The notes: generated by a model not told the origin, from the letters alone. 34,298 nt of DNA from Chloroflexota bacterium (GCA_016865935.1 VGOB01000030.1:1-34298), one strand, 5' to 3'; shown: positions 2,222 to 16,650, numbered from the stretch's first letter. A program made the numbers and translations.

Positions 2222-2460
2222 TACGGAGACACGAAAGAGAACGTCTGCAAACACCTGCCCGCCGATTCCGCCACCGTCGCGGCTTTTTGGCATTGTGACT
2301 TCGCGTTTGCAGCGTGCTTTCATTTCGTGGACACTTTGCGGCGGAATCGGCGGGCGGTAGCGTTCCCCGTCATGCCCTTGCAACTGGAGCATCGTACCAC
2401 TCGCAAGTTGACAAGTCGCGTAATCGAATAGACTCAAGAACATCGAAACCTGGGTGAGAC

Positions 2461-3605: not shown

Positions 3606-3861
3606 CCCGATGGCGCCCAAGACGGTCGAGCGAATTATCCAGGGTTACTCCAAGCGCGCGCTCGGTTTTGCGATCAGTTGGCACTCGCTCCGGACCACGT
3701 ACGTCTCGCGGAGTGTCGAGCTCGAGCAATCGCCAGTCGTTGTGATGGCAAACACCGGCGATAGCCCGGCGACGATCTTGAAATACTACGCCAAACTGCC
3801 CGAGGTCGTGATGCGCCGATTTGTAGATGGCAAGCCGGTGATTCCAGGGGAGAGGGTGTAA
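3598..3861 (+). pseudogene. 5'-truncated tyrosine recombinase (phage integrase family), C-terminal catalytic fragment only
   Basis: PKTVERIIQGYSKRALGFAISWHSLRTTYVSRS...ILKYYAKL has the H-x-x-R ... Y box II pattern of tyrosine integrases. The N-terminal SAM-like and core-binding domains are missing. The upstream reading frame runs through the repeat element. Confidence 0.5.
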
Positions 3862-3885
3862 GCACACAAGAGCAGGTAACAGCAC

Positions 3886-3930
3886 ACAAAAAACCTTCGA
3901 GGCGATGAACTGCCTCGAAGGTTTCGTTTA
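3886..3930. terminator. bidirectional rho-independent terminator
   Basis: Perfect 10-bp stem CCTTCGAGGC / GCCTCGAAGG, with an A-run upstream and a T-rich tract downstream. It sits between convergent genes. Confidence 0.55.
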
Positions 3931-4230
3931 TACAGCAATTGGCACGTAAAGATTGGGTTGGGCTTGACGCCAATGCGCTCTTTTGCTCGACTGGAGTCGC
4001 GCAAACACAATTGGTTTGTCGCGGCGGGCAAACGCATCCAGCAACCTCATATTGTAGAGTCGCATTTCGGGATCGTCGTCCGGTAGGATGACCAACTCAA
4101 AGTCACTGGGTAACGACGCCAGAACTTTCGGCTCTGCCAGCAAAAAGCGCATCAAATCGCCCAGCAGCGCGATGTTGCGCTCGACGACGCGTCGTGGTTT
4201 TCTGATCGGCGCAGTTACTTTTCTTTCCAT
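3928..4230 (-). CDS. hypothetical protein (downstream of the PIN gene)
   Basis: 100-aa ORF co-directional with the toxin-antitoxin pair. No recognisable domain. Confidence 0.3.
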   Translation of the reverse strand: MERKVTAPIRKPRRVVERNIALLGDLMRFLLAEPKVLASLPSDFELVILPDDDPEMRLYNMRLLDAFARRDKPIVFARLQSSKRAHWRQAQPNLYVPIAV

Positions 4231-4245
4231 TTGGGGTGTTCCCCA

Positions 4246-4704
4246 TTAGACTTGGGCAAGATACTCGGTGGGCGTGAGTATGCGCAAACTTGATTTGCCT
4301 TTGAAATGCCGTGCGTTCCATGTAACAAAACTCGTTACGCTCGGGGTTCGTTCCGCGAGATTCAGCGCAAGCGCATCCATGAACGCCATGCGGTGCATCC
4401 GCATTTTGGCAAACGGTTGATCCATGATTTCTGATTTGAAGTTGATCGTCGCAGTTGGATTGTCGAGTCCCACCGGCGCGAGCACACTCAGGTTATATAC
4501 TTCGATGAGCCATTCGCGCCAATTATCAAATTTTGCCGGAGCAAGGTTGAACGACAATTGTCCCAAAAGTTCCATCAAGTTGTACACGGTGATGGCGGGT
4601 TCCTCGGTCCGGACGCGCTCCAGAAATTCAGAATTGACTGTTTGACGCGCGTCACTCTGAAACGCGAATTCGAGCAAGAGAACGTCGGTGTCTATGACGA
4701 CCAT
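4246..4704 (-). CDS. vapC: PIN-domain ribonuclease toxin (VapC-like)
   Basis: MVVIDTDVLL start and conserved acidic residues (IDTD, LMELL, FMDAL, TWNARHF), typical of PIN/VapC. It overlaps the upstream small antitoxin ORF by 13 nt. Confidence 0.7.
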   Translation of the reverse strand: MVVIDTDVLLLEFAFQSDARQTVNSEFLERVRTEEPAITVYNLMELLGQLSFNLAPAKFDNWREWLIEVYNLSVLAPVGLDNPTATINFKSEIMDQPFAKMRMHRMAFMDALALNLAERTPSVTSFVTWNARHFKGKSSLRILTPTEYLAQV

Positions 4705-4964
4705 GAACGCCCTCGCAAGCGGATCATCGTTTCTTCGAGCGTGCCGGTTACTTTGCCTGCTAGTTCCTTGCGAATCTCAGCGGCGAGGCGACGCCCACGT
4801 CGAATCGCCACGGGCGAACCCGTCGGGCGCATGATGTACACGCGCGGCGTCCTGTCCAGTTCGGCGCGCAAGCGGTTTTGTTGAGCGAGTGGCAGTGCTC
4901 GAACATTCTCCAATATCTGGCGATAGGTTAGGCGCGGTTTGCGCCGAGTCATTACCATAGGCAC
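4692..4964 (-). CDS. putative antitoxin of the PIN toxin (VapB-like)
   Basis: 90-aa basic ORF immediately upstream of the PIN gene and overlapping it, the classic toxin-antitoxin arrangement. No strong domain signature. Confidence 0.4.
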   Translation of the reverse strand: MPMVMTRRKPRLTYRQILENVRALPLAQQNRLRAELDRTPRVYIMRPTGSPVAIRRGRRLAAEIRKELAGKVTGTLEETMIRLRGRSWSS

Positions 4965-5021
4965 CTCCGTACCAATTATACATCAATTTTGATTTTGGTG
5001 AAATTCGACGATCTGGTCACA

Positions 5022-5303
5022 TCATCCCTTCGCGCATTGATCGATCTCGTCTTGCTTGATCGTCCGCTTTTGATATTTCTCCGCAAACTCAATGATGCTT
5101 GACCGCGCGATTTTCACCGCCGCGTTTCGGTCTGGTCCCACGCGAAACCCCTTCAATTCCCCGCCCGCAAAGTAGCGCAGCACCTGTACCTTGGACAAAT
5201 ACAACACGCGCGCCGCGATGCTCGCCGACACGTACTTGGTCGGTGCTGGGTCAGCGCGTTTGAGTTGCAGCACGCCGAGTTGGAAATTCTTGCGCCGTTT
5301 CAT
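5022..5303 (-). CDS. excisionase/MerR-family HTH DNA-binding protein
   Basis: YVSASIAARVLYLSKVQVLRYFAGGELKGFRVGPDRNAAVKIARSSIIEF matches the excisionase-family DNA-binding domain (winged HTH: sv.EaA.lLgvs..tv.rl...G.l....vG). Confidence 0.5.
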   Translation of the reverse strand: MKRRKNFQLGVLQLKRADPAPTKYVSASIAARVLYLSKVQVLRYFAGGELKGFRVGPDRNAAVKIARSSIIEFAEKYQKRTIKQDEIDQCAKG

Positions 5304-5389
5304 ATCTCAAGTATATCATATCGTTTCAAATAGACCAAATGTTCGATTCGTTACATTCATTCGTTTCGTAACATCTTGCCGCCAAAGTC

Positions 5390-5419
5390 TTGACATTTGG
5401 CTTCGCGCGGGTGTATAGT
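5390..5419 (+). promoter_or_regulatory. sigma70-like promoter (TTGACA, 18-bp spacer, TATAGT)
   Basis: TTGACAtttggcttcgcgcgggtgTATAGT, immediately upstream of the first plus-strand gene of the phage-like module. Confidence 0.4.
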
Positions 5420-5443
5420 ATCAGCGTGGAAAGCAAAGCGTTC

Positions 5444-5605
5444 ATGAAAAATCTGCTGCTCCTCAAGCTGCACGAGTGGCTGGAGTCGATTGAACCTATG
5501 CTGGAGTGTTCTAGGTTTCGCGGTACGTTTCAGTTGGCTCTCGACGTTGACATGGAAAAACGTGATGTGAAGCTGAAGACCTACGTGCAGCAACCAACAA
5601 CTTGA
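5444..5605 (+). CDS. small hypothetical protein (53 aa)
   Basis: ATG preceded by GGAAAG. Lies between the promoter and a strong terminator. Confidence 0.35.
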   Translation: MKNLLLLKLHEWLESIEPMLECSRFRGTFQLALDVDMEKRDVKLKTYVQQPTT

Positions 5606-5625
5606 AATTGATTCGGCGCGCTGGA

Positions 5626-5670
5626 AAATGCAACCGAACCCGTTCCCTGGGTCGGTTGCATTTTTGTTTG
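5626..5670 (+). terminator. rho-independent terminator
   Basis: Stem TGCAACCGAACC / GGTCGGTTGCA followed by TTTTTGTTTG. Confidence 0.55.
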
Positions 5671-5737
5671 TTTCTGCCATCGTGGGGGATTGCCCCTCGA
5701 TCATTCCGCGCGAACGCGCAACCAAAGGAGAGTCTCT

Positions 5738-6025
5738 ATGTTAGTGCAAGGGTTAGTCGTCGGCGTCAAGGATGCGTCCTACGACTCCAAGCGTGAACCG
5801 GGCAAGAAAGTCGCCCAGTGGCAAATCGATCTGTACGACGACACGGCGGGCGTCCAGTCCTGCCAAATGGCGGGCGGCGCGAATGTGCTGCCCCCGGCGG
5901 TGCGGACGGACATCATCGCCGACGTCACCGCGATCCGGAAGCTGACGTTCGGCACCGGAATTCAATTGACGATTGCCAACGTCCGTCCGGCGAACGCGCC
6001 ACCGGCTGGCAAGCCGCCACGCTAG
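5738..6025 (+). CDS. hypothetical protein, possible ssDNA-binding (gV-like) by position
   Basis: RBS AAAGGAG 7 nt upstream of the ATG. ~95 aa, beta-rich, and located just before the small coat-like genes. No direct motif evidence. Confidence 0.4.
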   Translation: MLVQGLVVGVKDASYDSKREPGKKVAQWQIDLYDDTAGVQSCQMAGGANVLPPAVRTDIIADVTAIRKLTFGTGIQLTIANVRPANAPPAGKPPR

Positions 6026-6160
6026 AACAAACGAGGTCAAGGCGGCGGGAACGTGCGAGATTTGGGCGTATGCCTCGGGTAGGTAGTGCATCAAGCTGCT
6101 AGCGATCTCGCGGACCTCATTTGATTTAATCCTCTTACTTTTTCCCCTGGAGTACGTGAA

Positions 6161-6385
6161 ATGTGGGCAGGCTTTTGGTGTTCGAGTTGTAAAATCTTCG
6201 GGCTCGCTTGTCGTATTTGGGTCCCGCAGCATTGCTCGCTGGACAACAATCAATCCCTCATCGTGCAGTGGTTCAATTGGCAACCGGTTGTAATGACGAT
6301 CTCGATTGTCGTCGCGGTCTCTGTTGCTATTTTCCTCATCGCCTACTTTTCGAGTACCGTGCTCAATCTGCTTCATCAAAAGTAA
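6161..6385 (+). CDS. small membrane protein (74 aa), minor coat-like candidate
   Basis: GGAG RBS. C-terminal TM helix VVMTISIVVAVSVAIFLIAYF. Confidence 0.4.
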   Translation: MWAGFWCSSCKIFGLACRIWVPQHCSLDNNQSLIVQWFNWQPVVMTISIVVAVSVAIFLIAYFSSTVLNLLHQK

Positions 6386-6397
6386 ACGGGGTGTGTT

Positions 6398-6889
6398 ATG
6401 CAACAAGGTGCAATGTGGGGCGCGTTAGTCGGGACGTTGACTAATCAGCGTCTGACCCAGGACATCACGAAATATTTGGAGTGGTCTGTGATTGTCTTTG
6501 TCTTTGGCGTTCCGATCTGCATCATCGTCGCCAGTTACATCACGGAGGGCGTTTTCAAGTTGAGCAAGACGGTTGCGGGAATGGGTGCGGCGAAGATGCA
6601 GAACACTAACCGCAAAGTGGCGGACGATTGGAAAATGGCGACTGCGGGAGGTAGTTTTGCCGGTTCGTGGAGATCGGAAACGGGGCAGTACGGAGAGGTC
6701 AAGCAAGAGCTGGGCAAGTTGGGCTACGTGCGCGGAGGCAATCAGATGGATACGGAATACTGGGTTGCCTTGGAGCATAAACAAGGGCGTCCTGACGTGA
6801 TCAAGGTGCAAACCTTCAGCGATCAGGTTCAAGCGGCGCGCGCGCAAGGGTCTCGCCCCAAGCGCAAAGTTGGGCCGGTGAAGAAATGA
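6398..6889 (+). CDS. membrane protein (163 aa)
   Basis: TM helix WSVIVFVFGVPICIIVASYI followed by a soluble domain. Confidence 0.45.
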   Translation: MQQGAMWGALVGTLTNQRLTQDITKYLEWSVIVFVFGVPICIIVASYITEGVFKLSKTVAGMGAAKMQNTNRKVADDWKMATAGGSFAGSWRSETGQYGEVKQELGKLGYVRGGNQMDTEYWVALEHKQGRPDVIKVQTFSDQVQAARAQGSRPKRKVGPVKK

Positions 6890-6950
6890 TCGGGAAAATT
6901 TATTTCCGCGTTTGCCTTTTTGTGTGGGGCATCTTGTCAGGGGCGATCAA

Positions 6951-8579
6951 GTGAGAAAACCAGGAACATCGGATCGGCATCGTCTCGCGTTGGGCTTGGC
7001 TGCGCTTTTGTTTTCCTTAAGCGCGATCCTCGTCGTGCCGTTTCTTGCTTTTGGTCAAGGGACGATTCCAGCGAATGGGGCGTTTAGTGGTGGTCTCACG
7101 GGCTGGACTGTTCTCGGGTCTCAGGTGTGGCGCGGGGACATTGGACGGACCGCTAATGGCGCGGCGTGGTTTTATGGTAACGGCGGCGGTGCTTTGGTCA
7201 GTTCCGCATTTGTTCCGAGTGCGTCAACCGTCTTGACGATGTGGGTCGGTCGCTTAACTGGCTATGCCGCGATGCTGTACCTGCAAGTGTGGGATTACAC
7301 CACGGGGCAGATTCTGTTCGTCGGCAATCCGGTGAGTGCTTCGGGCTGGACTGAGCAGCAGTACGATTTATCCGGGTACGCGGGAAAAGTGATCGCGATT
7401 TCGTTCAACGCCAATTCTGGTAATGACGTGGTTGCGGTGGACGATATTTCGATTTCCAATGCGAGTTCATACACGGCATCGGAGAGCGAGGGAAATTGGT
7501 CGTTTCGCGCGTCGCTCAAGGGCTGGGTCCCGATGATGTCTTTTGCGTTTCAATCGTCGGTCAGTCAAGATGCGAATTCGGGATCGGTGGGCTTTTCCGG
7601 ATCAACCTGGGGCAATGTTTACAGTGTTCCGGTGTTGGTCTCAAGCGCGAATTGGTCGGGTTACTATCGTTGCACATCAACGCAGTATGTGCGGATTCAT
7701 TGGTACGATCAAACCCTGGGGACAAATGCGCTCATCACGCAACCTGCCGCAAATTGTGATGGCACCTGGAAACAGTTTTCCTGGTCAATGGGTCAGTACG
7801 TAGGTAACACGGGTCAATTGATGGGCACGATCTATGATGGCGGGACGAATTACCTGGACGCGCTTTGTCCTAGTTCCGGGTGCGGATCGGGCAACCTGGC
7901 AACGCCTACGCCGATCCCCAGTCCTACGGCAACCGGCGGCGGCGGTGGGGGCTATCCGACGCAATTACCCTATCCGACGCAATTACCTTATCCGACTTTC
8001 CCGCCATTTCCTACGTTCGCCCCATACCCGACTTTCCCGCCTTACCCGACTGTTGATTTCGGATGGAGTACGCCTTACGTGATTACGTTTGGCGGGACGC
8101 CTCAACCCGTGATCGTCACCAACACGGTGCAGATTACCGGTTCGGTCAACGTGCTGAACTGGCCGACGCCGATCTACGGACCGGGGACGCCGATGCCGGT
8201 TTATTATCCGACCAAGGAAATGACGCCCTTTGCAATTCCCACGGGCGCAGGTGGTGGGGGCGGCTTGGGGGTCACAATTGGCGGGGTGGTTGCAACCCAG
8301 CAAACGGGCAACATCTCGGGCGTGATGCCGTTCGCAACCCAGGGCGGTCAAACTTTCGAGACGCCAGGGGCGACGATCCAAGAACGTGTCCTGGGCTTTT
8401 GCTTTCCGGAACAAGTGACCAGGATTTTCGGGGGCGGTGCCGTGCCGGTCTGCTTCAACTTTACGATGTGGGAGGTCACGAAATTTTCGTACCTGGGCGT
8501 CAATCTGCTTGTGCCGCTCGGCGCGATTATGATCGTGTTCTTCTTTGTCTTCCTGGCGCGCCAGGTGCAGCAAAATTAG
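6951..8579 (+). CDS. pIII-like minor coat/adsorption protein: signal peptide, two beta-rich domains, Gly-rich and Pro/Thr/Tyr-rich linkers, C-terminal membrane anchor
   Basis: N-terminal signal/TM LALGLAALLFSLSAILVVPFLAFG and two similar domains (WTVLGSQVW... and WSFRAS...). Linker is PTPIPSPTATGGGGGGYPTQLPYPTQLPYPTFPPFPTFAPYPTFPPYPT, with a later GAGGGGGLG run. C-terminal anchor is LLVPLGAIMIVFFFVFLARQ. GTG start with AGGGG RBS chosen; TTG 6912 is an alternative. Confidence 0.5.
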   Translation: MRKPGTSDRHRLALGLAALLFSLSAILVVPFLAFGQGTIPANGAFSGGLTGWTVLGSQVWRGDIGRTANGAAWFYGNGGGALVSSAFVPSASTVLTMWVGRLTGYAAMLYLQVWDYTTGQILFVGNPVSASGWTEQQYDLSGYAGKVIAISFNANSGNDVVAVDDISISNASSYTASESEGNWSFRASLKGWVPMMSFAFQSSVSQDANSGSVGFSGSTWGNVYSVPVLVSSANWSGYYRCTSTQYVRIHWYDQTLGTNALITQPAANCDGTWKQFSWSMGQYVGNTGQLMGTIYDGGTNYLDALCPSSGCGSGNLATPTPIPSPTATGGGGGGYPTQLPYPTQLPYPTFPPFPTFAPYPTFPPYPTVDFGWSTPYVITFGGTPQPVIVTNTVQITGSVNVLNWPTPIYGPGTPMPVYYPTKEMTPFAIPTGAGGGGGLGVTIGGVVATQQTGNISGVMPFATQGGQTFETPGATIQERVLGFCFPEQVTRIFGGGAVPVCFNFTMWEVTKFSYLGVNLLVPLGAIMIVFFFVFLARQVQQN

Positions 8580-8589
8580 AGGTGATCGA

Positions 8590-8706
8590 ATGTTGATTTT
8601 TGGTACCGCTGGCTTGGCTCTCGTGGTGCTGATGTTTGTCCTGCTCGTCGTCTTTCTGATCGCCGATGCGATTAGATGGGTCGTCTCACTCTTTATGGGC
8701 GGCTAA
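8590..8706 (+). CDS. small hydrophobic protein (38 aa), pVI-like candidate; below the ORF-track size cutoff
   Basis: GAGGTGA RBS then ATG. MLIFGTAGLALVVLMFVLLVVFLIADAIRWVVSLFMGG. Confidence 0.35.
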   Translation: MLIFGTAGLALVVLMFVLLVVFLIADAIRWVVSLFMGG

Positions 8707-8710
8707 GCGA

Positions 8711-9559
8711 ATGGGGCTTTTGGCAAACGGCTTGCCGATGGCATCGGCGGCGCAAATGCGGCTCAAGCATTTGCTCTTTACCTATCTGCGCTATCTGTAC
8801 GGCGATAGTTTTGCAAAGGACCCGATCCTGGGTTTCTTTTTCGGCGATTGGTTGGAGGACGCCGGAGTGGAACCGGCGATTCCTCGATGCGTCGTCGAAT
8901 TGGAACAGAAGATCACCTATCCCAAACCGACGTTCTGGAATGCGGAGAATTTCCTTGAAGCACTCCTGGCTTATCGCTTGGTATGGCTGAAAGGTCGGCT
9001 TGGCGGCGGTAAGACCTCGCTCGCGTTCGGGCTTGCGAAATGGTTGTACGAAACGAAAGGCAAGGATGGGCATCGCCTGGTAGATGGCGTATTTACAAAT
9101 GTGCCTTCCGATCCGGATTTCATTCCACGCTTGGATCACTGTTATCGCGCCTGCGTGATTCTCGATGAAGGATGGGCGCACGGCGCCGATTCGCGTGACA
9201 GTGGTTTTCGATATTCGGGGTACGGCGCATACGCGCGCAAGTTGGATTGCTTTTGGTTGCAAGCGTCCAAGAATGAAATTGACAAGCGAATGACGGATGT
9301 CATTGCTAAGCGGCGCGGCGATCTCTGGATGTTCAAGGCGTGGCTGTACACCTGGACGGACGGCGAGGCGTCTGAAGGTTGGTTCTTGTGGCGTCGCTAT
9401 ACTGAAGTCTTTGGACGTTACTTGACCAAGTTCATTCCGGCGGACGATGGCGGAATTTTGGAAAGTCAAAAATATGAGATCGCCGGACGCGCGGGTAGCA
9501 CTCAATTGCTCGTGCCGACCGGATGGTACAACAAACCAAGGACAGGGGCGCACGCGTGA
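8711..9559 (+). CDS. P-loop NTPase, Zot/pI-like phage assembly ATPase candidate
   Basis: Walker A VWLKGRLGGGKTSLAFGLAKW and Walker B CVILDEGW. It follows the pIII-like and pVI-like genes as in inoviruses. Start could be 8666 instead. Confidence 0.45.
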   Translation: MGLLANGLPMASAAQMRLKHLLFTYLRYLYGDSFAKDPILGFFFGDWLEDAGVEPAIPRCVVELEQKITYPKPTFWNAENFLEALLAYRLVWLKGRLGGGKTSLAFGLAKWLYETKGKDGHRLVDGVFTNVPSDPDFIPRLDHCYRACVILDEGWAHGADSRDSGFRYSGYGAYARKLDCFWLQASKNEIDKRMTDVIAKRRGDLWMFKAWLYTWTDGEASEGWFLWRRYTEVFGRYLTKFIPADDGGILESQKYEIAGRAGSTQLLVPTGWYNKPRTGAHA

Positions 9560-10449
9560 GCGATCAACCTTTGACTTCTGCGCCTGATGCGCCGGAAAAA
9601 CTTGCCGCGCCAGGCGTGACGCCAAAAGACAATACGCGTCCGGAGTTGCATTTCCAAAATCGCCGGAAGTTGTTGACCTTGTTTTTCATCGTCCTGATCC
9701 TGGGCGTCTGCTGGTTTATGGGATCACGTTTCGCCAATCCGCTGCAAGGCGCGGATATGGCGTTGACCGGTGGGGCGACTGCGGCGAAAAAACGAGAAAC
9801 GGCGCAAGCATTGGAGCAGCAGCAGGGTCCCTTGCCGCCTGCGGTGAAAGGTTTGGCGTTGACTGCTACGCCTCCTGCGATTGGCGGCGGGATTATGGGG
9901 GCGTCTCAACCGAACGTGCCTGCGCCTCAGCAACAACAACCGGCAACCTCGGGTCGTTCGAGCGGCGTGATTGTTGCGGCGCCGAATGAGATAAACGCGG
10001 TGATGTGCCGCGTTGTGTCGAATTTTGAGGCCGAGAGCGTGAAACTGCTTCAAGGTTCTTTGGTTCGCGCTTCGGGCTTTTCATACGCAAAAAACGGAGT
10101 GGTGTACCTTTCGGATCCGAATGTTGGCTGGGTAGATTCGACCTGGTTGGGTTGTCCGCCGGAGATCGTTCGCATCGAGCGACCTTACTTTGTTTCTCCG
10201 ACTGTGACGCCGACCGGAAAAGCGAAAGGTCCGGAGGTTCTTCGTGTGGCAGTTCCTCAGACTGTTGTCGTTAGTGCTACGCCTTGCGTACTACCTAAAA
10301 CGCCTGCTGAGGTGAATGGGGTGGTGCTGGAGGGCGATTGCGTCATTTTTCAAATTACGGGCGTTCGCGCGATCTATGCCGATGGCAAACCTGTTTCCGG
10401 CGGTACAAAGATTTGCGGCGTCAATAATTTCAGTGTCACGATTCGATGA
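9523..10449 (+). CDS. bitopic membrane protein with extracytoplasmic domain (possible pI C-terminal/pXI-like partner)
   Basis: One TM (LLTLFFIVLILGVCWFMG) followed by a Pro/Ala/Gln-rich linker and a beta-rich domain. Overlaps the end of the NTPase gene. Confidence 0.4.
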   Translation: MVQQTKDRGARVSDQPLTSAPDAPEKLAAPGVTPKDNTRPELHFQNRRKLLTLFFIVLILGVCWFMGSRFANPLQGADMALTGGATAAKKRETAQALEQQQGPLPPAVKGLALTATPPAIGGGIMGASQPNVPAPQQQQPATSGRSSGVIVAAPNEINAVMCRVVSNFEAESVKLLQGSLVRASGFSYAKNGVVYLSDPNVGWVDSTWLGCPPEIVRIERPYFVSPTVTPTGKAKGPEVLRVAVPQTVVVSATPCVLPKTPAEVNGVVLEGDCVIFQITGVRAIYADGKPVSGGTKICGVNNFSVTIR

Positions 10450-10464
10450 AAGGGGGTGAGATCA

Positions 10465-10545
10465 ATGAGCGATCCGAATCCAAGGATTCCGGAGGACGAT
10501 GAAGAGGAATGGTTGGACGATGAGGACGACGACGAGGGCGAGTAG
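10465..10545 (+). CDS. tiny acidic peptide (26 aa; MSDPNPRIPEDDEEEWLDDEDDDEGE)
   Basis: Strong RBS AAGGGGGTGAG then ATG. Extremely acidic. Confidence 0.25.
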   Translation: MSDPNPRIPEDDEEEWLDDEDDDEGE

Positions 10546-10576
10546 TCTTACTCTCGTACACTAGGAAAGGAGAGGT

Positions 10577-11242
10577 ATGTTCGGGGATTTTGTTTCGTCT
10601 TTGCAGTTGTCCGCGTTGAGCGATGCCATTATGGGCGTGTTGTCTATTCCGTTGGTGCCAGCGTTGGGGCTGACTGTGATCGTGTTCTACCTTGTGCCGT
10701 TCGCGTTTCGCCGACTTTATGCTTTGGCTTCGAGTAATCGTCAATCGGATGAAATTCTTCGGGAGTTTGCGGCGGCGCGCGAGGTTGAATCGCGGATTCA
10801 GAGTTTCTTGTTGCGCCATCCTCCCCGTTCGGTCGAGGAACAAGCTGCGGCGGAGCTCGGCATTTCGGTCGAGGAGTTGATCGCGCCCGATCCTTGGGAT
10901 GAGTATAAAGTATTTTCGGCGGACGGTGGTCCTGAGATGGATCCGGTCGAGGCGCGCGAGATTTTGGAGGCGGAAAGACAGGGGGGCGATCCTCGTGGTC
11001 GGGTGGTATGGCTGTATGATGAAACGAGTGATGTGGGAAAGTCCATTCGGCGACAATCTGAGAAAAGGCGAAAACGCGGGGGTGATCAGCGGGTAGCCGA
11101 AGAACTCGGGATGTCGGTGGAGGAGTGTCGCGAGCTTATGGCGGCGGAAGAGTATCTTTACGATGAAACAAGTGGTGCGGCAAAGTCCCTTCGGCGACAA
11201 GCTGAGAAAAGGCGAAAACGCGGGGGCGATTTGCCCTTCTAG
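10577..11242 (+). CDS. coat-like N-terminal TM domain protein, paralog A (internal duplication; C-terminal RRKRGGDLPF tail)
   Basis: N-terminus MFGDFVSSLQLSALSDAIMGVLSIPLVPALG is shared with 11293, 12066, 12952 and 13740. The AEELG(I/M)SVEE...KS(I/L)RRQ(S/A)EKRRKRGGD module occurs twice. GGAG RBS. Confidence 0.6.
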   Translation: MFGDFVSSLQLSALSDAIMGVLSIPLVPALGLTVIVFYLVPFAFRRLYALASSNRQSDEILREFAAAREVESRIQSFLLRHPPRSVEEQAAAELGISVEELIAPDPWDEYKVFSADGGPEMDPVEAREILEAERQGGDPRGRVVWLYDETSDVGKSIRRQSEKRRKRGGDQRVAEELGMSVEECRELMAAEEYLYDETSGAAKSLRRQAEKRRKRGGDLPF

Positions 11243-11292
11243 TATTTTCGTGTCGCGCACGTGCTTGACACGAAATAATTCGGGGAGTTGAA

Positions 11293-12015
11293 ATGTTCAA
11301 TGATTTTGTTTTCTGGCTTGACCTGACGAGATTGGCGGACGCCATCGGCGCGGTATTACAAATTCCGCTCGTCCTGGCACTCGGCGTTAGCGTGTTTGCG
11401 CTGCCGCTCGTGGTTATCGTTTTCCGGCGTCTGTACGATTTGCTGGAGTTGCGTCACGTCATCGCGTTGTCAAAACGTGAAGCGACTCAGCAAGCGCAGT
11501 TTGAAATCGACCTGGCTCAATTTCTGTTGAAACGTCCGGATTTGAGTATCGAGCAGCGGGTAGCTGAAGAACTCGGGATGTCGGTGGGGGAATTGAACGC
11601 GCCTGGCGGGTGGAGTGATGATTCGGTTTATTCGGCGGATGGGGGTCCCGAAATGGATCCAGTTGAGGCGCGCGAGATTTTGGAGGCGGAAAGACAGGAC
11701 GGCGGACAGTACGGTCGTAGCCGCGCTATTTCTCTCGCCGATGGGTCCTATGCCTGTCCGGAATGCCTGAGCGGTCTGGATGAAGAGTACGTGCCCGATG
11801 GCTCGCTTGGCTGTTCTGTGTGCGGATGGCTTGAAATGGACGATGATCCTCAGCCGGTGGTGGGCTATGTGCCAAAGCGCGCCCAAAATCCGTCTGAGTT
11901 CGTGGATTCGCTTTATGATGCGGACGGCAATTTCGCCGCATTCACGCCGACGCAAAAGTCAATTCGACGACAAGCCGATAGAAGGCGAAAACGCGCGGGC
12001 GATTTGCCCTTCTAA
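11293..12015 (+). CDS. coat-like N-terminal TM domain protein, paralog B (zinc-ribbon CPEC...CSVCGW; same C-terminal tail)
   Basis: MFNDFVFWLDLTRLADAIGAVLQIPLVLALG. Shares ADGGPEMDPVEAREILEAERQ and the KSIRRQADRRRKRAGDLPF end with paralog A. Confidence 0.6.
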   Translation: MFNDFVFWLDLTRLADAIGAVLQIPLVLALGVSVFALPLVVIVFRRLYDLLELRHVIALSKREATQQAQFEIDLAQFLLKRPDLSIEQRVAEELGMSVGELNAPGGWSDDSVYSADGGPEMDPVEAREILEAERQDGGQYGRSRAISLADGSYACPECLSGLDEEYVPDGSLGCSVCGWLEMDDDPQPVVGYVPKRAQNPSEFVDSLYDADGNFAAFTPTQKSIRRQADRRRKRAGDLPF

Positions 12016-12065
12016 TATTTTCGTGTCGCGGTCGAGCGGGACACGTAATAATTCAAGGAGATGAA

Positions 12066-12659
12066 ATGTTCAATGAATTTGTTCTCTGGCTTGACTTGGC
12101 GGGTTTGGCTGCCGCGATCTCGGCGGTGTTTGCGATTCCGCTGGTTCAGGCACTTTTCGTAGGGCTGCTCGGCTTTACCATCGTGCTTTGGGGGCTGAAG
12201 ATGATTTCGCGATTGGCGGGGCTGTATTTCGCGTTGCCCGGAGATGTCCACGAGGCGACACCAGGCGCGATCAATGTGCCTGGAATGATGCTCCGCCAGG
12301 ACGATTACTTGAATGTGGACGTTGACGTGGCGGCAACGTTGCTTACAGGGCAACAAGCTCAATGGATGGTCGAGCGTTATGGCCCGGACGTCGATCCTGT
12401 CTTGAGCGAAGAGGGCAGCTGGATGCAAGTGCGCGTTGACCTGGGTTTGAATGCGCCGGAATTGTATTATGGCTTGACTGGGCCCGAAGCAATGGCTTTG
12501 CAGGATTACTCGTATCGTCGCGCGTTTCCTGAGGAGTTCTCGGGTGGGGGGGATGCCGAAATGATCGCCTCGCACAATCAAATGCGCGCGCGCCGTTCCG
12601 CGAACAATCGGGGGCAAAATCAGCACTATGACGATCTCGCCTTCGAGGGTGCGGTCTGA
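12066..12659 (+). CDS. coat-like N-terminal TM domain protein, paralog C (divergent C-terminal domain)
   Basis: MFNEFVLWLDLAGLAAAISAVFAIPLVQALF, with two TM helices. The 50-bp leader is nearly identical to that of paralog B. Confidence 0.55.
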   Translation: MFNEFVLWLDLAGLAAAISAVFAIPLVQALFVGLLGFTIVLWGLKMISRLAGLYFALPGDVHEATPGAINVPGMMLRQDDYLNVDVDVAATLLTGQQAQWMVERYGPDVDPVLSEEGSWMQVRVDLGLNAPELYYGLTGPEAMALQDYSYRRAFPEEFSGGGDAEMIASHNQMRARRSANNRGQNQHYDDLAFEGAV

Positions 12660-12943
12660 TGGATTCAACGCCGGTTGACGTTGTTGCGCTTTCACTGATC
12701 GCGGTGCAAGGCGCGGAGATAGTTGCCGCTTCGATTGCGGTCGGCTTTCTGTTTCTCTTGATCTCACTGCCAGGGCAAAATCAGATGAAGGTCCAAAACG
12801 CCTTCTTGCTGATCGAATTGTTCTGCCTGCCGGTCTGGTTTGTCTCGCTGATCTGGTGGGTTCTGCTGCACTATATCTTCGTCGTGATGTACGTGATGCT
12901 CAATGCCTTTGGGCGTCTCGTGCGGCAAAGGGTCAAAACGTAG
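12659..12943 (+). CDS. small polytopic membrane protein (94 aa)
   Basis: Start overlaps the previous stop (TGATG). Three hydrophobic helices. Confidence 0.4.
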   Translation: MDSTPVDVVALSLIAVQGAEIVAASIAVGFLFLLISLPGQNQMKVQNAFLLIELFCLPVWFVSLIWWVLLHYIFVVMYVMLNAFGRLVRQRVKT

Positions 12944-12951
12944 GAGGGGCA

Positions 12952-13113
12952 ATGTTGAATCTGCCGATTGAATGGACTGCCATCGCCGACGCAATGGTTG
13001 ACTTTGCCGCGATTCCGATTGTTCCCGCCATCGCTGCGGCGGTGATCGGCATCGGTCTCGTCGTGTTCTTGATCCAACAAATTCAAAAACTGTTTGGATC
13101 GGGAGGTGAGTGA
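12952..13113 (+). CDS. coat-like small protein (53 aa)
   Basis: AGGAGGGG RBS. IADAMVDFAAIPIVPAIAAAVIGIGLVVFLI matches the family motif (L/I)xDA(I/M)....IP(I/L)V.A. Confidence 0.45.
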   Translation: MLNLPIEWTAIADAMVDFAAIPIVPAIAAAVIGIGLVVFLIQQIQKLFGSGGE

Positions 13114-13274
13114 TGAATTTTGAAAACGTGGCAATGAGCGGCGATCTGATTTGGGAACAAATCCAACTGATCTTGGGCATCGGCTTTGTGATCGCGTTGA
13201 TGATCTTGCCGTTGTCGATCAAGTTCATCTTTCGCCTGGTCAAAGGGCTTGGGCGTTCCCTGGTGAGAATGTGA
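13113..13274 (+). CDS. small membrane protein (53 aa) with basic C-terminus, coat-like
   Basis: GGAGGTGAG RBS. The ATG overlaps the previous stop. LILGIGFVIALMILPLSIKFIFRLVKGLGRSLVRM. Confidence 0.35.
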   Translation: MNFENVAMSGDLIWEQIQLILGIGFVIALMILPLSIKFIFRLVKGLGRSLVRM

Positions 13275-13642
13275 CGATCAAGTGGCTTGCTGTCGCGCTG
13301 GCAATCGCGCTTTGTCTGTTCTTGCTTCTGCTTGGATCGGTTCAAGCGGAAACGATGCACCCTGGCGCGCTGGCAATGGTGTTGCAACAAGGGACGGGAA
13401 CTCCTCCGTCGACGGAAACGCCATCGGCAACTGAAACGCCCTCGCCGACGTCGACGCGGTTGCCGACCGCCACGCGTGTCAAGTGGACGCACGGGATCGA
13501 GGATGAAGCGACGGTCCCGAATGTGACTGATCTCATTGCCGGTTTCTTCTTGATTCCGGCGGTAACTGCGGCGATCCTGGGGGTGTTTGCGATCACTATC
13601 GTCGTGCTTGCTTTTCGGCACTTCCAGCGTTTGATCGAGTAG
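13271..13642 (+). CDS. secreted Thr/Pro-rich protein with C-terminal membrane anchor (minor coat-like)
   Basis: GTG start overlapping the previous stop. Signal peptide WLAVALAIALCLFLLLLGSVQA, then TPPSTETPSATETPSPTST, then a C-terminal TM plus basic RHFQRLIE. Confidence 0.45.
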   Translation: MTIKWLAVALAIALCLFLLLLGSVQAETMHPGALAMVLQQGTGTPPSTETPSATETPSPTSTRLPTATRVKWTHGIEDEATVPNVTDLIAGFFLIPAVTAAILGVFAITIVVLAFRHFQRLIE

Positions 13643-13739
13643 TACACCACACTTTATAAAATAGTTCGGCGCGTGACCTGGTCGAACGTTGACGTACTCG
13701 GGTCCGCTAATCCTATTAGAGAAGGGAGGTGAAAGCAAA

Positions 13740-13904
13740 ATGTGGAGCGATTTCAGCACCGTGTTGACTGAGGCCGCGTTGGGTGACGCCATCGGCGACG
13801 TGCTCGGGATTCCCATCGTCGTGGCAGTTGGTCTGGGCACGATGGCCCTGGGTTTGGTCGTCTTTGCGCTGCGCCGACTCAAACGCCTCGCGCCTCAATC
13901 TTAG
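13740..13904 (+). CDS. major coat protein-like (54 aa: acidic amphipathic N-terminus, hydrophobic core, basic C-terminus)
   Basis: Strong RBS GAAGGGAGGTGA. MWSDFSTVLTEAALGDAIGDVLGIPIVVAVGLGTMALGLVVFALRRLKRLAPQS has the g8p-like architecture and matches the paralog family. A GC-rich hairpin at 13921-13956 follows it. Confidence 0.5.
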   Translation: MWSDFSTVLTEAALGDAIGDVLGIPIVVAVGLGTMALGLVVFALRRLKRLAPQS

Positions 13905-13980
13905 GCATTATGCCTCAACCGTGTGGGGGACGCCGCACTGTGGGGTGTCCCCCCACCATCTTTGATCTGAAGGAGTTGCT

Positions 13981-14136
13981 ATGCCAACCTTGCCTGATTA
14001 CTGGACGACGATTTCAAGTCAAATGTCGTCCTTTATGAACTGGACTGCCGTTTCGACGCCCACCGCGATCATCGTTGGCGCGGCGGTCGTGTGCGTGATG
14101 CTGGCGATGTTCCTGTCCGTTTTCATGAAGCATTAG
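13981..14136 (+). CDS. small membrane protein (51 aa)
   Basis: GAAGGAG RBS. TM AIIVGAAVVCVMLAMFLSVF. Confidence 0.35.
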   Translation: MPTLPDYWTTISSQMSSFMNWTAVSTPTAIIVGAAVVCVMLAMFLSVFMKH

Positions 14137-14262
14137 CGGACACGTTACAATGCAGGGGGACAAAGAAGGAACGCCGGGGAGGGCGGGCGCGGACGCCTGG
14201 GTGCCCTCTGGGCTGGCGGACGCGTCCGCCTGCGGTAGCAGAAAACAAGGGAGAGTTAGAAA

Positions 14263-14460
14263 ATGTCGGTTTCAGATCGGCGAACAGTGTTATTTATCTT
14301 GCGCGTGATCTTGGTCTCGATCTTGCTTCAAGTCCTGATCGCTGCGCTCGACGTTCCGAATGTGGTGCTTGCGATAACCGCGCCGGTCGGGACATTGGTG
14401 ATTTTGGCGGTGCTTGATTGGGCCGACAAGCACGTCAAGTTGTCGTTTCGGATTGATTGA
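14263..14460 (+). CDS. small membrane protein (65 aa)
   Basis: AAGGGAGAG RBS. Two hydrophobic helices. Confidence 0.4.
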   Translation: MSVSDRRTVLFILRVILVSILLQVLIAALDVPNVVLAITAPVGTLVILAVLDWADKHVKLSFRID

Positions 14461-14650
14461 TGTCGCGCCTCGTTTCGCGCGTGGCGGGACACAATTCAAA
14501 GTATTGGCTCGTGATCCACATTCCGAATCGCTGTGCGGTGCGTTGTTCGGATTGTGGTCGTTATCATCGGGTTGGCGTCGTCATTTCAAAGCGGTACACT
14601 TGTAACCGCTCGCCTGGCGAACGCCGATTTATCCTAATTTGCCTGCGTTG

Positions 14651-14699
14651 TCTCAACCGATTCGGTTGGGACCTGACCCCCGTGTAGTAATACGGGGGT
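14651..14699 (+). promoter_or_regulatory. two perfect hairpins immediately upstream of rep (candidate plus-strand origin/nick site)
   Basis: CAACCGAtTCGGTTG is a palindrome. GACCCCCGTgtagtaatACGGGGGTC has a 9-bp perfect stem and an 8-nt AT-rich loop. Both lie 20-70 bp before the Rep start. Confidence 0.4.
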
Positions 14700-14720
14700 C
14701 GAAAATACGGTAGTACCATT

Positions 14721-15665
14721 ATGCACATAGACTGGATAGGTGTAACCCTTCAAGGCAATAGCCAACATGCTCTTGGGCTTGTGCGCTCGTGGGCTGGGTC
14801 GCTCGAGGAGATGAGCGGCGGAGGTATGGGCTACGATCGAAGTGCCAAGATATGGGACACGGGTCGAGTGTATTGGTCTACTATGCGATCCGATATGGGC
14901 GTTCACGTCCGCTTGCCTTCAAGCGCAATGCACACAAGCAAACAAGACTCAGTGGACCTACTGACGTGGCTTGTGAGGCACAACGGCAATACGACGCGGC
15001 TTGACGTGGCTTGTGATGACTTTGACTATCACTTGCTCGACCTCGCAGAGATTAGCCGCAAGGCGCAAGAGGATGAAGTATGCACGGACGCCCAGGTGAT
15101 TGATGAATGGCACGCGTTGCGGGGCGTAGGGCATACGATCTACTTTGGCTCGCGTTCGAGTGAGCGCCTGTTACGCATTTATGACAAAGCCGCGGAGCAA
15201 GTAAAAAAAGCGGGCGGCAATGCGGCGATGCCTGACGAATTCTGGGTTCGGGTGGAGTTGGAGTTGAAAGGGGATCGGGCAAAAGTCGCGGGGCAAATGA
15301 TCGTTGATCATCGTGAAACGTGGCAGATTCTAGGGGCTGGCTGGATTCGGGACTTTGTAGATTTCAAGGAACCCGAATTGGAGGATATTAACAAGGCGCG
15401 TTGGGAAACTTCTAGATGGTGGCTTGATTTTCTGGACAATGCTGCCAAGTGCAAAATTCCGATCAAGCGTGAGGAACAAACGATAGAACGGATCGTGGCG
15501 TGGGTGGACAAGCAAGTGGCGCCCAGTCTGTTTGTTTTGAGCGCGACGGTGGGACACGATCAGGTATTTGAACGGGTTGGCGCGGCGTCTGCGCGTTTGA
15601 GTGCGCGCCAGGTGCAGTTGATCAATGAGTGGAACACTGAAAACGAGGTTACCGATGTTCAATGA
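14721..15665 (+). CDS. rolling-circle replication initiator, Rep_trans family (phage replication initiation factor, RstA/gpII-like)
   Basis: Motifs HTIYFGSRSSERLLRIYDKAAE and FWVRVELELKGDRAK resemble the conserved (R)xYDK and vRvElel blocks of PF02486. Size 314 aa. Confidence 0.55.
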   Translation: MHIDWIGVTLQGNSQHALGLVRSWAGSLEEMSGGGMGYDRSAKIWDTGRVYWSTMRSDMGVHVRLPSSAMHTSKQDSVDLLTWLVRHNGNTTRLDVACDDFDYHLLDLAEISRKAQEDEVCTDAQVIDEWHALRGVGHTIYFGSRSSERLLRIYDKAAEQVKKAGGNAAMPDEFWVRVELELKGDRAKVAGQMIVDHRETWQILGAGWIRDFVDFKEPELEDINKARWETSRWWLDFLDNAAKCKIPIKREEQTIERIVAWVDKQVAPSLFVLSATVGHDQVFERVGAASARLSARQVQLINEWNTENEVTDVQ

Positions 15666-15801
15666 TCTGCTCAATCAAATCGCATTTCATTCGCCGTACC
15701 TCGCTTGGACGAATGAAGAACGCTGGTACTATTGTTTCCTCTTGAGCGCGTTGATGCTGTGTTTTTGGATCGCGTTTCCGCGCGGCGGCGGCAAGTCGTG
15801 A
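15655..15801 (+). CDS. small protein (48 aa) with an MFND N-terminus like the coat-domain family
   Basis: Overlaps the Rep stop. MFNDLLNQIAF... has a hydrophobic stretch and a GGGKS end. Weak. Confidence 0.25.
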   Translation: MFNDLLNQIAFHSPYLAWTNEERWYYCFLLSALMLCFWIAFPRGGGKS

Positions 15802-15859
15802 CGCCGGCGGGATCGCTTTGACCTGCAAATGTCCCGCATTTTGGGACACCGCGACCGCG

Positions 15860-16126
15860 CGTTGACACGAAAAAACGTTTTTTCCGCGGCGGATGACACG
15901 AAAAGCGACAAGCTTATCAGTAAGGGGCGTACTAATCGCTCCTGCCAGGCGGATGACACGAAAAAAGTCGAATTTTCCCCGCGCGCGTGATTTCCCGTAC
16001 AAAAAAAATCCCTGCCGCTCCGGAGAGCGACAGGGACTTTGTTTGTCCGGATGTTGACACGATTTCCGCGACCGCTGTTTTCGTGTCCTCGACGTGCCGG
16101 ACACGAAAAAAGGTTTCGTGTCACGC
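15860..16126. repeat. cluster of GACACGAAA(A) / TTTCGTGTC motifs (six or more copies, direct and inverted)
   Basis: ttGACACGAAAAAAcg, gcggatGACACGAAAAgcg and gcggatGACACGAAAAAAgtcg are direct copies. TTTTCGTGTCctcgacgtgccgGACACGAAAAAA is an inverted pair, and GGTTTCGTGTCACG also occurs. The motif also forms hairpins in the leaders at 11245-11276 and 12018-12046. Confidence 0.6.
16003..16050. terminator. bidirectional terminator in the convergent intergenic region
   Basis: AAAAAAAA-TCCCTGCCGCtccggagaGCGACAGGGA-CTTTGTTTGT. Confidence 0.45.
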
Positions 16127-16135
16127 TCGACCCTC

Positions 16136-16339
16136 TTATTTGCGTTTCTTCTTGAGGGCTTTTTCGAGCGGGGCGTAGGACGCCCACATCGCTGTGCGCG
16201 CGCGTTGTTGTCGCGCGCGCATCTTGCAGCGGTTGCTGCAATATTTCTTTCGACGCCCACCGCGATCCGATTGCTCGATGGGCTGGCTACACATCCGGCA
16301 CTTGTCCGGACCTGCGAACTTGTATGCCATTGCGATCAC
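16136..16339 (-). CDS. small basic zinc-ribbon protein
   Basis: CRMCSQPI...YCSNRCKMR with KR-rich tails. Confidence 0.4.
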   Translation of the reverse strand: MIAMAYKFAGPDKCRMCSQPIEQSDRGGRRKKYCSNRCKMRARQQRARTAMWASYAPLEKALKKKRK

Positions 16340-16650
16340 CTCCTTTCCTCGATTTTGACTTCTCTGACGATCTGCGCGAACGTGGTTGGATCCACGCGGA
16401 ACGTCAGCACTTTTGGTTGCCAGGTGCGATCAAAGTCAACAGGCGCGGACCAGTCGTTTTTGACGGAAGCTATGTACCACCCCGGGGGGGTTTTGACACG
16501 TCCTCGATGCATCTGCCAAATGCAGTACAAGGCGTGATTGTGCAAATGCAGTTCGTCGAATTCTTCGGCGAGGTTTGCGACGGTCGTGAGTGATAGTCCG
16601 ATTGCTTCGGTTAGCATTGTGAGCAGTTCGTTGTCAATCGTCTTCGTCAT
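16336..16650 (-). CDS. hypothetical protein
   Basis: 104-aa ORF packed tightly with its neighbours (start/stop overlaps). Typical protein-like composition. Confidence 0.4.
   Translation of the reverse strand: MTKTIDNELLTMLTEAIGLSLTTVANLAEEFDELHLHNHALYCIWQMHRGRVKTPPGWYIASVKNDWSAPVDFDRTWQPKVLTFRVDPTTFAQIVREVKIEERR

Follow-up and report, generated by a model that had tools for sequence, protein, structure and literature searches.

An inovirus-like module with a divergent pI-like ATPase in a Chloroflexota genomic island

The hallmark of filamentous phages is the combination of a hydrophobic coat protein with an FtsK-like ATPase; Rep_trans is their commonest replication initiator, and replication modules are exchanged freely among them (PMC13595969). 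They are found by one marker, the pI/Zot ATPase. In the study of cryptic inoviruses by Roux et al. 2019, which proposed six families, a genuine pI protein was required to have Zot as its closest Pfam domain and one or two transmembrane (TM) segments (PMC6813254). The IME1 elements of Dehalococcoides, 21-28 kb in size, combine an integrase and a distinct arm for replication with a pI-like ATPase that is accompanied by small TM genes. They have been put forward as dsDNA viruses of a filamentous or budding type and were abundant in viral fractions rich in filamentous particles, with the genome not linked to a particular particle type (bioRxiv 10.64898/2026.09.15.751708). Here, we describe a 34,298-nucleotide contig from a Chloroflexota bacterium (GCA_016865935.1 VGOB01000030.1:1-34298), referred to in its full length as the window, in which an initial annotation had placed an inovirus-like module, embedded in an island, at positions 5390-16135.

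We conclude that this segment and its flanks (3604-16650) are probably the integrated genome of a filamentous-phage-like virus (inovirus-like, Tubulavirales/Efunaviria-type) of a Chloroflexi bacterium, or at least the half of one that encodes the replication and virion functions. The evidence consists of the identity of the Rep_trans initiator, the remote homology of an NTPase to pI, the gene architecture, the synteny with 6-kb relatives whose contig ends overlap, and the absence of tailed-phage genes. The module represents a divergent lineage with a pI that has no membrane segment and is missed by the standard Zot profile. The central claim of the initial annotation is thus supported, principally by the remote pI homology and the Ff-like gene order of the relatives.

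The module spans 10.4 kb, compared with 5.8-6.4 kb for the small relatives, and every gene is on the plus strand. The block at 5738-15801 contains about 20 open reading frames (ORFs), with G+C contents at third codon positions of 0.56-0.78, and the GC skew is positive over 6-16 kb (+0.07 to +0.21). Scans of the window against Pfam and PHROG yielded no capsid, terminase, portal or tail genes, as had been claimed from the sequence. All features listed in the initial annotation were found at or near the positions given there. Two details did not hold: the small genes said to have been missed by the ORF track are already present in the public gene calls for the same contig, and an ORF at 5390-5605 is doubtful, its first part (5390-5419) being occupied instead by a promoter-like site.

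The replication initiator and the ATPase

Three genes of the module encode the replication initiator, the ATPase and a putative partner of the latter (lengths in amino acids, aa):

8711-9559, plus strand: pI/Zot-like morphogenesis ATPase, 282 aa, without a membrane segment
9523-10449, plus strand: putative membrane partner of the ATPase, 308 aa, with an N-terminal TM segment (residues 50-68) followed by an extracytoplasmic domain
14721-15665, plus strand: Rep_trans rolling-circle initiator (Pfam PF02486, phrog_453, PDB 4CIJ)

The initiator matched PF02486 at 6e-40 (137.4 bits, cut-off 29.6), the PHROG replication initiator phrog_453 at 1.1e-24 and the solved Geobacillus Rep (PDB 4CIJ) at 3.9e-22, so that the Rep_trans claim of the initial annotation passed the Pfam check proposed there. 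Its motifs LRIYDK and WVRVELELK, which contain the RIYDK and VRVELELK strings noticed earlier, align with VRFYEK and WNRTEIQLR in 4CIJ, and both the RxYxK motif, the tyrosine of which we take to be the catalytic residue, and the E-x-E motif are kept. The protein is 46% identical to the Rep of the related locus L017 and 23% identical to that of the 6.2-kb relative L012 (L numbers denote related loci throughout). The type of Rep at the equivalent place in the relatives varies between Rep_trans, REP_ORF2-G2P and weak Phage_CRI-like matches, which fits the published free exchange of replication modules (PMC13595969).

The NTPase, which is identical to NCBI protein FJ009_06100, has a Walker A motif GRLGGGKT and a Walker B motif VILDE. 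A search that covered 1.84 billion cluster representatives placed it in a family of 752 relatives at the 50%-identity cluster level, 513 of which scored below 1e-10 in a profile search. The 22 close homologues are all unannotated and a few are labelled Chloroflexi or Anaerolineae; in the wider family, many members are located on contigs of 5-10 kb. To place the family we aligned a profile of 105 members with hhalign to a reference alignment of seven pI/Zot proteins drawn from annotated phage records (M13, IKe, VFJ, two bajarodino viruses, Dulem virus 51 and Inovirus D_HF1_11), which gave 96.9% at an E-value of 1.5e-10 over 144 columns. The value was 92.7% for M13 pI alone and 1.7% for the motor domain of E. 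coli FtsK, used as a control. The match extends past the Walker A and B motifs to an RK motif and a C-terminal YDT motif. Because hhalign favours pI over FtsK and the match runs beyond the Walker motifs, the sequence comparison identifies the NTPase as homologous, remotely but specifically, to the ATPase domain of pI, within the FtsK-HerA superfamily. Among the PHROG matches of family members, the best E-value was for 'Zot-like toxin' (5.5e-7, two members) and one member matched 'morphogenesis protein I of M13'. Fold comparison of the NTPase gave Inoviridae Zot proteins as its best viral matches.

Rep_trans proteins also serve as MOBT relaxases. The same genes might thus belong to an integrative conjugative or mobilizable element, or to an integrated rolling-circle plasmid, with the initiator as a MOBT-type relaxase or plasmid initiator, the NTPase as a TraB/FtsK-like translocase and the small membrane proteins as Spd-like spread proteins, comparable to those of actinomycete integrative and conjugative elements (AICEs) and pIJ101-type plasmids. 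The wide distribution of Rep_trans in plasmids (PMC13595969), a host phylum of filamentous type and a virion side that is known here from genes alone would all suit such an element. The preference of hhalign for pI over the FtsK motor speaks against it, as does the finding that 0 of the 105 family members matched the Pfam families for FtsK_SpoIIIE, VirB4 or coupling proteins. Neither a FtsK_SpoIIIE-type translocase nor a VirB4 with a coupling protein was found, and no ORF is big enough for the latter two; apart from a 542-aa pIII-like protein, all ORFs in the island are at most 353 aa long. Moreover, elements of this kind have neither a secreted, anchored pIII-like protein nor g8p-like proteins some 50 aa long, and an Ff-like gene order is foreign to them. 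We consider this explanation very improbable.

The product of the gene downstream of the ATPase may stand in for the TM segment and periplasmic portion of pI/pXI. A gene of 247-308 aa with one N-terminal TM segment and an extracytoplasmic domain is located 3' of the NTPase gene in all loci examined except L027, and sequence homologues of the partner in the window were identified in L001, L002, L017 and L018. We considered a programmed frameshift joining the two genes and rejected it: the frame of the partner relative to the ATPase is +1 in L001, L011 and L012 and -1 in the window and L002, and since the frames differ between loci a conserved frameshift is unlikely. A peptidoglycan-hydrolase '3D' domain was suspected in the partners of the 6-kb relatives and found no support in Pfam.

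Gene order in the relatives and candidate virion genes

The gene context in the relatives is the strongest evidence for an inovirus-like genome. Two diverged relatives, L001 and L002, encode NTPases that are 48% and 60% identical to that in the window, and six small contigs of 5.8-7.6 kb (L011, L012, L013, L014, L026 and L027) were checked for terminal overlaps. Such overlaps were found in three of the six, namely 30 nucleotides (nt) in L026 (5820 bp), 77 nt in L011 (6076 bp) and 20 nt in L012 (6212 bp), and in none of L013 (6379 bp), L014 and L027. Because their ends overlap, the sequences of L026, L011 and L012 suggest circular molecules, and almost all genes in each of them share one strand. 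The order in the small relatives is a Rep_trans or G2P-type Rep, small TM proteins, a secreted anchored protein of 375-382 aa, a 38-aa TM protein, the NTPase and its TM partner. In L012, all genes share one strand and encode, in this order, a 66-aa protein, Rep_trans, a tailed 96-aa coat paralogue, an 87-aa protein, two hydrophobic proteins of 43 and 46 aa, the 382-aa secreted anchored protein, a TM protein of 38 aa, the NTPase and a TM protein of 306 aa. With the exception of the last gene, M13 has the same order, and the comparison with inoviruses proposed in the initial annotation thus returned an Ff-like order. L011, L026 and L027 follow the plan of L012 with a G2P-type Rep. The integrated relatives L017, L018 and L019 are 8-13 kb in size, lie between host genes and adjoin small integrases. 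In L011, positions 3930-4484 encode a GNAT acetyltransferase as an apparent cargo gene; this contig was binned with a metagenome-assembled genome (MAG) of Magnetococcus, and the assignment to a host outside the Chloroflexi may or may not be correct.

The remaining genes of the module, with one hairpin between them, are as follows:

5738-6025, plus strand: candidate single-stranded DNA (ssDNA)-binding protein, 95 aa, from the gene that opens the block, at the g5p position
6161-6385, plus strand: small single-TM protein, 74 aa, TM at residues 43-61, short match in L001
6398-6889, plus strand: membrane-anchored protein, 163 aa, one N-terminal TM segment, no family match in Pfam or PHROG
6951-8579, plus strand: pIII-like adsorption/cap protein, 542 aa, with a signal/TM segment, two CBM-like modules, linkers and a C-terminal anchor
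8590-8706, plus strand: 38-aa protein with one predicted TM segment in the position of pVI, 57% identical in L002
10577-12659, plus strand: three tandem paralogues of 221, 240 and 197 aa, with a coat-like N-terminal TM domain that aligns with the short coat candidates and a long tail, associated with direct DNA repeats
12659-12943, plus strand: three-TM protein, 94 aa, 55% identical in L002
12952-13274, plus strand: two single-TM proteins of 53 aa, the first of the coat-like family, both conserved in L002
13355-13642, plus strand: 95-aa protein, Thr/Pro-rich in its N-terminal part and ending in a TM segment of coat-like type
13740-13904, plus strand: best candidate for the major coat, 54 aa, member of the coat-like family, 56% identical in L002
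13921-13957, plus strand: GC-rich hairpin after the 54-aa coat candidate, terminator-like in the scan
13981-14460, plus strand: 51-aa single-TM protein, conserved in L002, L017 and L019, and 65-aa two-TM protein
15655-15801, plus strand: small hydrophobic protein, 48 aa, single TM

The large secreted protein with Gly-rich and Pro/Thr/Tyr-rich linkers and a C-terminal anchor that had been noted previously is present at 6951-8579, where we observed an N-terminal hydrophobic segment, a GGGGGG stretch, PT/PY-rich linkers and a C-terminal TM segment (residues 530-548). A full-length homologue was found in L002 (36% identity), and the C-terminal 85-171 aa alone are conserved in L001, L017, L018 and L019 while the N-terminal domains vary, which is the pattern expected of an adsorption protein. 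Like the 38-aa gene of the window, a TM gene of 35-57 aa is located 5' of the NTPase gene in L002, L012, L013, L017, L019, L026 and L027. The first gene of the block has homologues at the same position in L001 (31%) and L017 (47%) and none in a word-indexed search. No secretin gene was recognised in the module.

Prediction of TM topology, as suggested in the initial annotation, supported the set of small membrane proteins described there: seven have a single TM segment (74, 38, 53, 53, 54, 51 and 48 aa), one has two (65 aa) and one has three (94 aa). Six small ORFs are conserved at the protein level in L002. A coat-like domain with the consensus M...L.DAI..v..IP.V.A...lVv.a.R.L.rL occurs in six copies in the window and five in L002, and is found in the 6-kb genomes too. 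The charge layout said to resemble g8p is seen in the 54-aa protein, with -4 on the N-terminal side of the TM segment and +4 on the C-terminal side, compared with -3 and +4 computed in the same manner for mature M13 g8p. The hairpin reported after this gene was also recovered (about 13921-13957; -35.7 kcal/mol, z = -4.0). The module thus encodes small (30-90 aa) hydrophobic helical proteins of the kind expected for a major coat, as judged from their features and not from homology to known coats.

The tails of the three long paralogues comprise about 140-185 aa. In the first two, the tail contains a helix-turn-helix (HTH)-like motif, AEELG(M/I)SVEE, and a basic end, RRKRGGDLPF, and the paralogues gave a weak match to Sigma70_r3 (E = 0.0057). 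The same two proteins contain internal repeats of the form LYDETS..KS.RRQ.EKRRKRGGD.

Four non-coding or composite segments are associated with repeats:

11245-11275, plus strand: hairpin TTTCGTGTC-N12-GACACGAAA, directly 3' of the stop codon of a paralogue
12018-12048: second, imperfect copy of the TTTCGTGTC-N12-GACACGAAA hairpin
15802-16135: intergenic region, candidate plus-strand origin/packaging region, with six GACACGAAA sites and hairpins
14051-16267: segment between two copies of TTTCGACGCCCACCGCGATC, containing the 65-aa gene, the Rep gene, the 48-aa gene and the intergenic region, 2,197 bp

The repeat-rich intergenic region that was reported to end the module is present. It contains six copies of GACACGAAA, of which there are 10 in the window compared with 0.55 expected; hairpins overlap one another at 16075-16129, and another, terminator-like and of 16 pairs, lies at 16005-16040; the convergent transcription units end in this region; and when folded as ssDNA it is more stable than shuffled controls (z = -5.6). 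The TTTCGTGTC-N12-GACACGAAA hairpin located 3' of two of the long coat paralogues recurs in this region. We also observed an exact 20-nt direct repeat, TTTCGACGCCCACCGCGATC, with sharp edges, at 14051-14070 and 16248-16267, one copy in a plus-strand gene and the other in a minus-strand gene; chance alone would give about 5e-4 pairs of this kind. As relatives carry other Rep types at the same place, the segment bracketed by the repeat may be an exchange cassette of Rep plus origin.

Evidence to the contrary and the limits of the element

Several results weigh against the assignment to the filamentous phages. The NTPase did not match the Pfam Zot family (PF05707) at E <= 0.1, and among 105 sampled family members none did so at E <= 0.01, the matches being to generic P-loop families only. 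A tblastn search of 50,697 phage records gave nothing, no PHROG matched the NTPase itself, and PDB searches with profiles of 23 and 105 sequences produced matches at the level of Walker A only. Nor does it contain a membrane segment, in disagreement with the criterion of one or two TM segments used by Roux et al.; about 90 of the 105 members have none according to a crude hydropathy test, which scores the real M13 TM segment low too. A pattern scan with the close-family alignment found no relatives in genome contigs or IMG/VR. With 20 more distant members, the scan found three loci in species-representative genomes, two of which are Anaerolineae MAG contigs, and none in IMG/VR, so that in that collection the lineage was not called viral by an independent pipeline. 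On the virion side, no homology was found between the coat candidates and known families of coat proteins, nor did any PHROG match them, and a single-sequence AF2 model of the ssDNA-binding candidate is all-beta with low confidence (pLDDT 48). The initial annotation had named the failure of the NTPase to match Zot profiles as grounds for giving up its reading, and literally this is what was observed. Its Zot/pI-like NTPase is thus upheld as a Walker NTPase with remote homology to pI, and not as a member of PF05707; without a Zot match, the link to pI needs profile-profile and fold comparisons.

The mobility of the element has to be judged from its surroundings:

1-3444: host-like genes for a Band_7 protein, a zinc-ribbon protein and a DUF4062-GAF protein
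3604-3861, plus strand: 3' remnant of a small tyrosine recombinase (C-terminal 85 aa)
5022-5303, minus strand: small HTH protein, divergent from the module, possible excisionase or regulator as suggested by its position only (HTH_17 E = 0.0056, below the cut-off)
5390-5419, plus strand: promoter-like site at the head of the plus-strand block, TTGACA-18-TATAGT, an 11/12 consensus match only
16136-16650, minus strand: 67-aa zinc-ribbon-like protein and 104-aa protein, homologues at the same place and in the same orientation in L002
16634-27737, minus strand: block of about 25 small genes, possible other half of a composite element
20180-21610: hairpin-dense stretch of about 1.4 kb without convincing ORFs, candidate origin or regulatory region
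24723-25559, minus strand: O-like replication initiator (phrog_1032, 5.9e-11)
26209-26691, minus strand: HTH_31 regulator
27357-27737, minus strand: LexA-type DNA-binding protein
27705-28766, plus strand: full-length tyrosine integrase at the right end of the island (Phage_integrase, 5.3e-32)
29040-29090, plus strand: tRNA/tmRNA-like 3' fragment (variable arm, T-arm and acceptor strand) adjoining the integrase
30363-33602, and from 33541: host-like genes on the right side, WYL-Cas3 and Cas5

The island, which lies between host-like flanks and has a higher G+C content than these, is real, and the core of the module agrees with the limits given in the initial annotation. The limits themselves are too narrow, since the integrase remnant lies further to the left and the genes at 16136-16650, shared with L002, further to the right.

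The remnant is 89% identical in amino acids and 78% in nucleotides to a 202-aa integrase at the left end of the L019 element. Its N-terminal part of about 117 aa has no match anywhere in the window, and a split integrase of the SSV type was rejected for this reason. Truncation of this gene implies that the prophage may be immobile. No convincing attachment-type direct repeats were found around the module or around the island; the tRNA/tmRNA-like fragment is probably the remnant of an attachment site, and there is no complete tRNA in the window. The JGI and Logan assemblies show the same integrated context, which was seen in 10 of 10 public contigs with the NTPase, an episomal form being seen in 0 of 10. 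The truncated integrase, the missing attachment repeats and the absence of an episomal form also tell against an active phage and would be expected of a defective or domesticated remnant, one that keeps genes of inovirus type and has lost excision or infectious particles. Against such decay, the core ORFs are all intact, the active-site motifs of Rep and the Walker motifs are kept, and a full-length integrase is located at the right end of the island. The public short-read assemblies break in the paralogue region (contigs of 3,379, 3,965, 9,212 and 12,617 bp), and because they break at these repeats episomal forms could be missed. Furthermore, inoviruses can replicate from the integrated copy without excision, as established for CTXphi. 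A remnant is in our judgement unlikely.

The minus-strand genes raise a different question, namely whether the whole island (about 3.6-29.1 kb, about 25 kb) is one composite temperate element rather than an inovirus inside an unrelated island. Such an element would consist of a minus-strand 'early' arm, with repressor-type regulators, an O-like theta-type initiator and the integrase, and an inovirus-like arm with the virion genes and Rep. The suggestion arises because minus-strand genes recur next to the module in diverged relatives: homologues of 16136-16339, 16336-16650, 19061-19570, 19759-20178, 24430-24738, 24723-25559 and 26209-26691 are found beside it in L001 or L002, five of these genes belonging to the large minus-strand block. 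For the same reason the earlier description of the module as embedded in the island may be wrong. Both arms converge on the one strong hairpin terminator at 16005-16040, the initiator of the early arm has its phrog_1032 match, and the right-end integrase is 42% identical to the integrase flanking a compact 10-kb relative in L018. IME1 shares with the island its size, its plan of three modules and its Chloroflexota host, as well as a pI-like ATPase with small TM genes 3' of it (bioRxiv 10.64898/2026.09.15.751708). On the other hand, compact relatives have no such arm, both as overlap-ended contigs of 5.8-6.4 kb and as prophages of 8-13 kb. A second, truncated integrase of the inovirus-associated type lies to the left of the module, which fits two elements side by side, or a rearrangement. 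Searches with Pfam and PHROG recovered neither of the IME1 markers, serine resolvase and archaeal primase-helicase, and IME1 is without Rep_trans. We rate a composite origin of the island somewhat below an even chance.

The minus-strand block also contains genes for a DnaJ-like protein and a DUF4326 protein, the latter among those with homologues next to the module in L001 or L002. In its hairpin-rich stretch, a 50-nt palindrome is present twice (20204-20255 and 20612-20662), the arms of an inverted repeat at 20852-20922 are 32 nt long, and positions 21377-21437 form a CT-rich tract. A LuxR/GerE regulator gene (27000-27377, plus strand, 1.3e-20) overlaps a 211-aa ORF on the minus strand (26688-27323) that has no family match; this ORF is probably shorter than called, or spurious. 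The segment 3928-4964 (minus strand), located between the remnant of the integrase and the module, contains a DUF5647 gene and an overlapping pair of 152- and 90-aa genes with a toxin-antitoxin-like look and no Pfam match. Two tandem units of about 70 nt, each with a TATAAT-like box and a CTAGnAGGATAGnGCATCTCCTA hairpin, are located between the right-end integrase and the tRNA-like fragment (28880-29030). Two further 70-nt repeats, 87% identical and rich in CACGGAAA / TTCCGTGA half-sites, are found at 29298-29464, upstream of a small regulator gene, WYL-Cas3 and Cas5, and may be an operator array for the cas genes.

Proposed life cycle and comparison with known systems

For an inovirus-like genome, the gene content suggests the following cycle. 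The plus-strand block would be transcribed from the promoter near 5390, and Rep_trans would nick the plus strand at a hairpin in 15802-16135 to start rolling-circle synthesis of ssDNA, which the 95-aa product of the first gene may coat. The coat proteins, which are about 50 aa long, acidic at the N-terminus, basic at the C-terminus and free of signal peptides, would insert into the membrane, where the soluble pI/Zot-like ATPase (8711-9559), putatively in complex with the membrane protein encoded at 9523-10449, would thread the DNA through during coat assembly. The resulting filament would be capped by the 542-aa pIII-like protein and the 38-aa protein, with the CBM-like domains mediating adsorption. 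Release would be chronic and non-lytic, with no secretin recognised.

A broader and distinctly more tentative proposal is that the module belongs to a family-level group of filamentous-virus-like elements overlooked by Zot-based detection, with at least 752 ATPase clusters at 50% identity, a split pI, coats with HTH-like tails and, in Chloroflexota, fusion into elements of about 25 kb. In such a group, two genes would share the function of pI, one encoding a soluble ATPase and the other its membrane partner. The basic HTH-like coat tails could tether the viral DNA to the site of assembly, perhaps through the TTTCGTGTC-N12-GACACGAAA hairpin. A 6-kb core would have acquired an arm for theta-type replication and lysogeny in the Chloroflexota, and the resulting elements of about 25 kb could be intermediates between ssDNA inoviruses and the larger viruses of the IME1 type.

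The NTPase family escapes Pfam Zot, BLAST and scans of IMG/VR. If its members are real viruses, the diversity and host range of filamentous phages are still under-counted, and their hosts would include the Chloroflexota, a phylum that is abundant in sediments, lakes and bioreactors. The NTPase marks a large group of comparable small elements in metagenomes, apparently circular and for the most part uncatalogued, and the split between ATPase and partner would amount to a natural dissection of pI function. The apparent 25-kb composite bears on the origin of the viruses proposed for IME1 of Dehalococcoides.

The nearest known systems are the filamentous phages (Tubulavirales), with the Inoviridae (M13/Ff), the Paulinoviridae (Propionibacterium phage B5) and the Plectroviridae. 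In common with M13, the order on one strand is Rep, a small protein, small hydrophobic coats, a large anchored adsorption protein, a small TM protein and a P-loop ATPase. Rep_trans, the charge layout of the g8p type, a structured intergenic region and the absence of capsid, terminase and tail genes are likewise shared with filamentous phages. In contrast to classical inoviruses, the ATPase of the module is unseen by Pfam Zot and BLAST and has no TM segment, the next gene supplying both this and the ectodomain; no secretin was recognised in the module; the coat domain is present in six copies, three of them long-tailed and two of those tails HTH-like; and another 12 kb of genes, possibly inherited together with it, adjoins the 10.4-kb module. 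Metagenomic inovirus genomes in GenBank also include some with short Zot proteins (204-245 aa) that have no evident TM segment.

The inoviruses of Roux et al. resemble the module in their pI-like ATPase, single-TM proteins of 30-90 aa, short genes and replication initiators (PMC6813254), whereas the NTPase family fails both of the pI criteria used in that study, the Zot domain and the TM segments, and has no relatives in the pattern scans of IMG/VR. The initiator itself resembles the RepC/RepD family of pT181 and the Geobacillus Rep in its full-length domain match and conserved motifs; unlike the genes for pT181-type Reps, it is part of a virus-like gene block and not of a small resistance plasmid.

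IME1, here likened by description, has a serine resolvase, an archaeal primase-helicase and a proposed packaging of dsDNA, whereas the island has Rep_trans with an iteron region and an O-like initiator, and CARDB and PEP-CTERM proteins were not found in it. Shared with IME1 are an integrated element of 20-28 kb in a Chloroflexota host (about 25 kb here), a terminal tyrosine recombinase, a central block in which several genes for small TM proteins come after that for a pI-like ATPase, a separate arm for regulation and replication, and a gene content free of tailed-phage genes.

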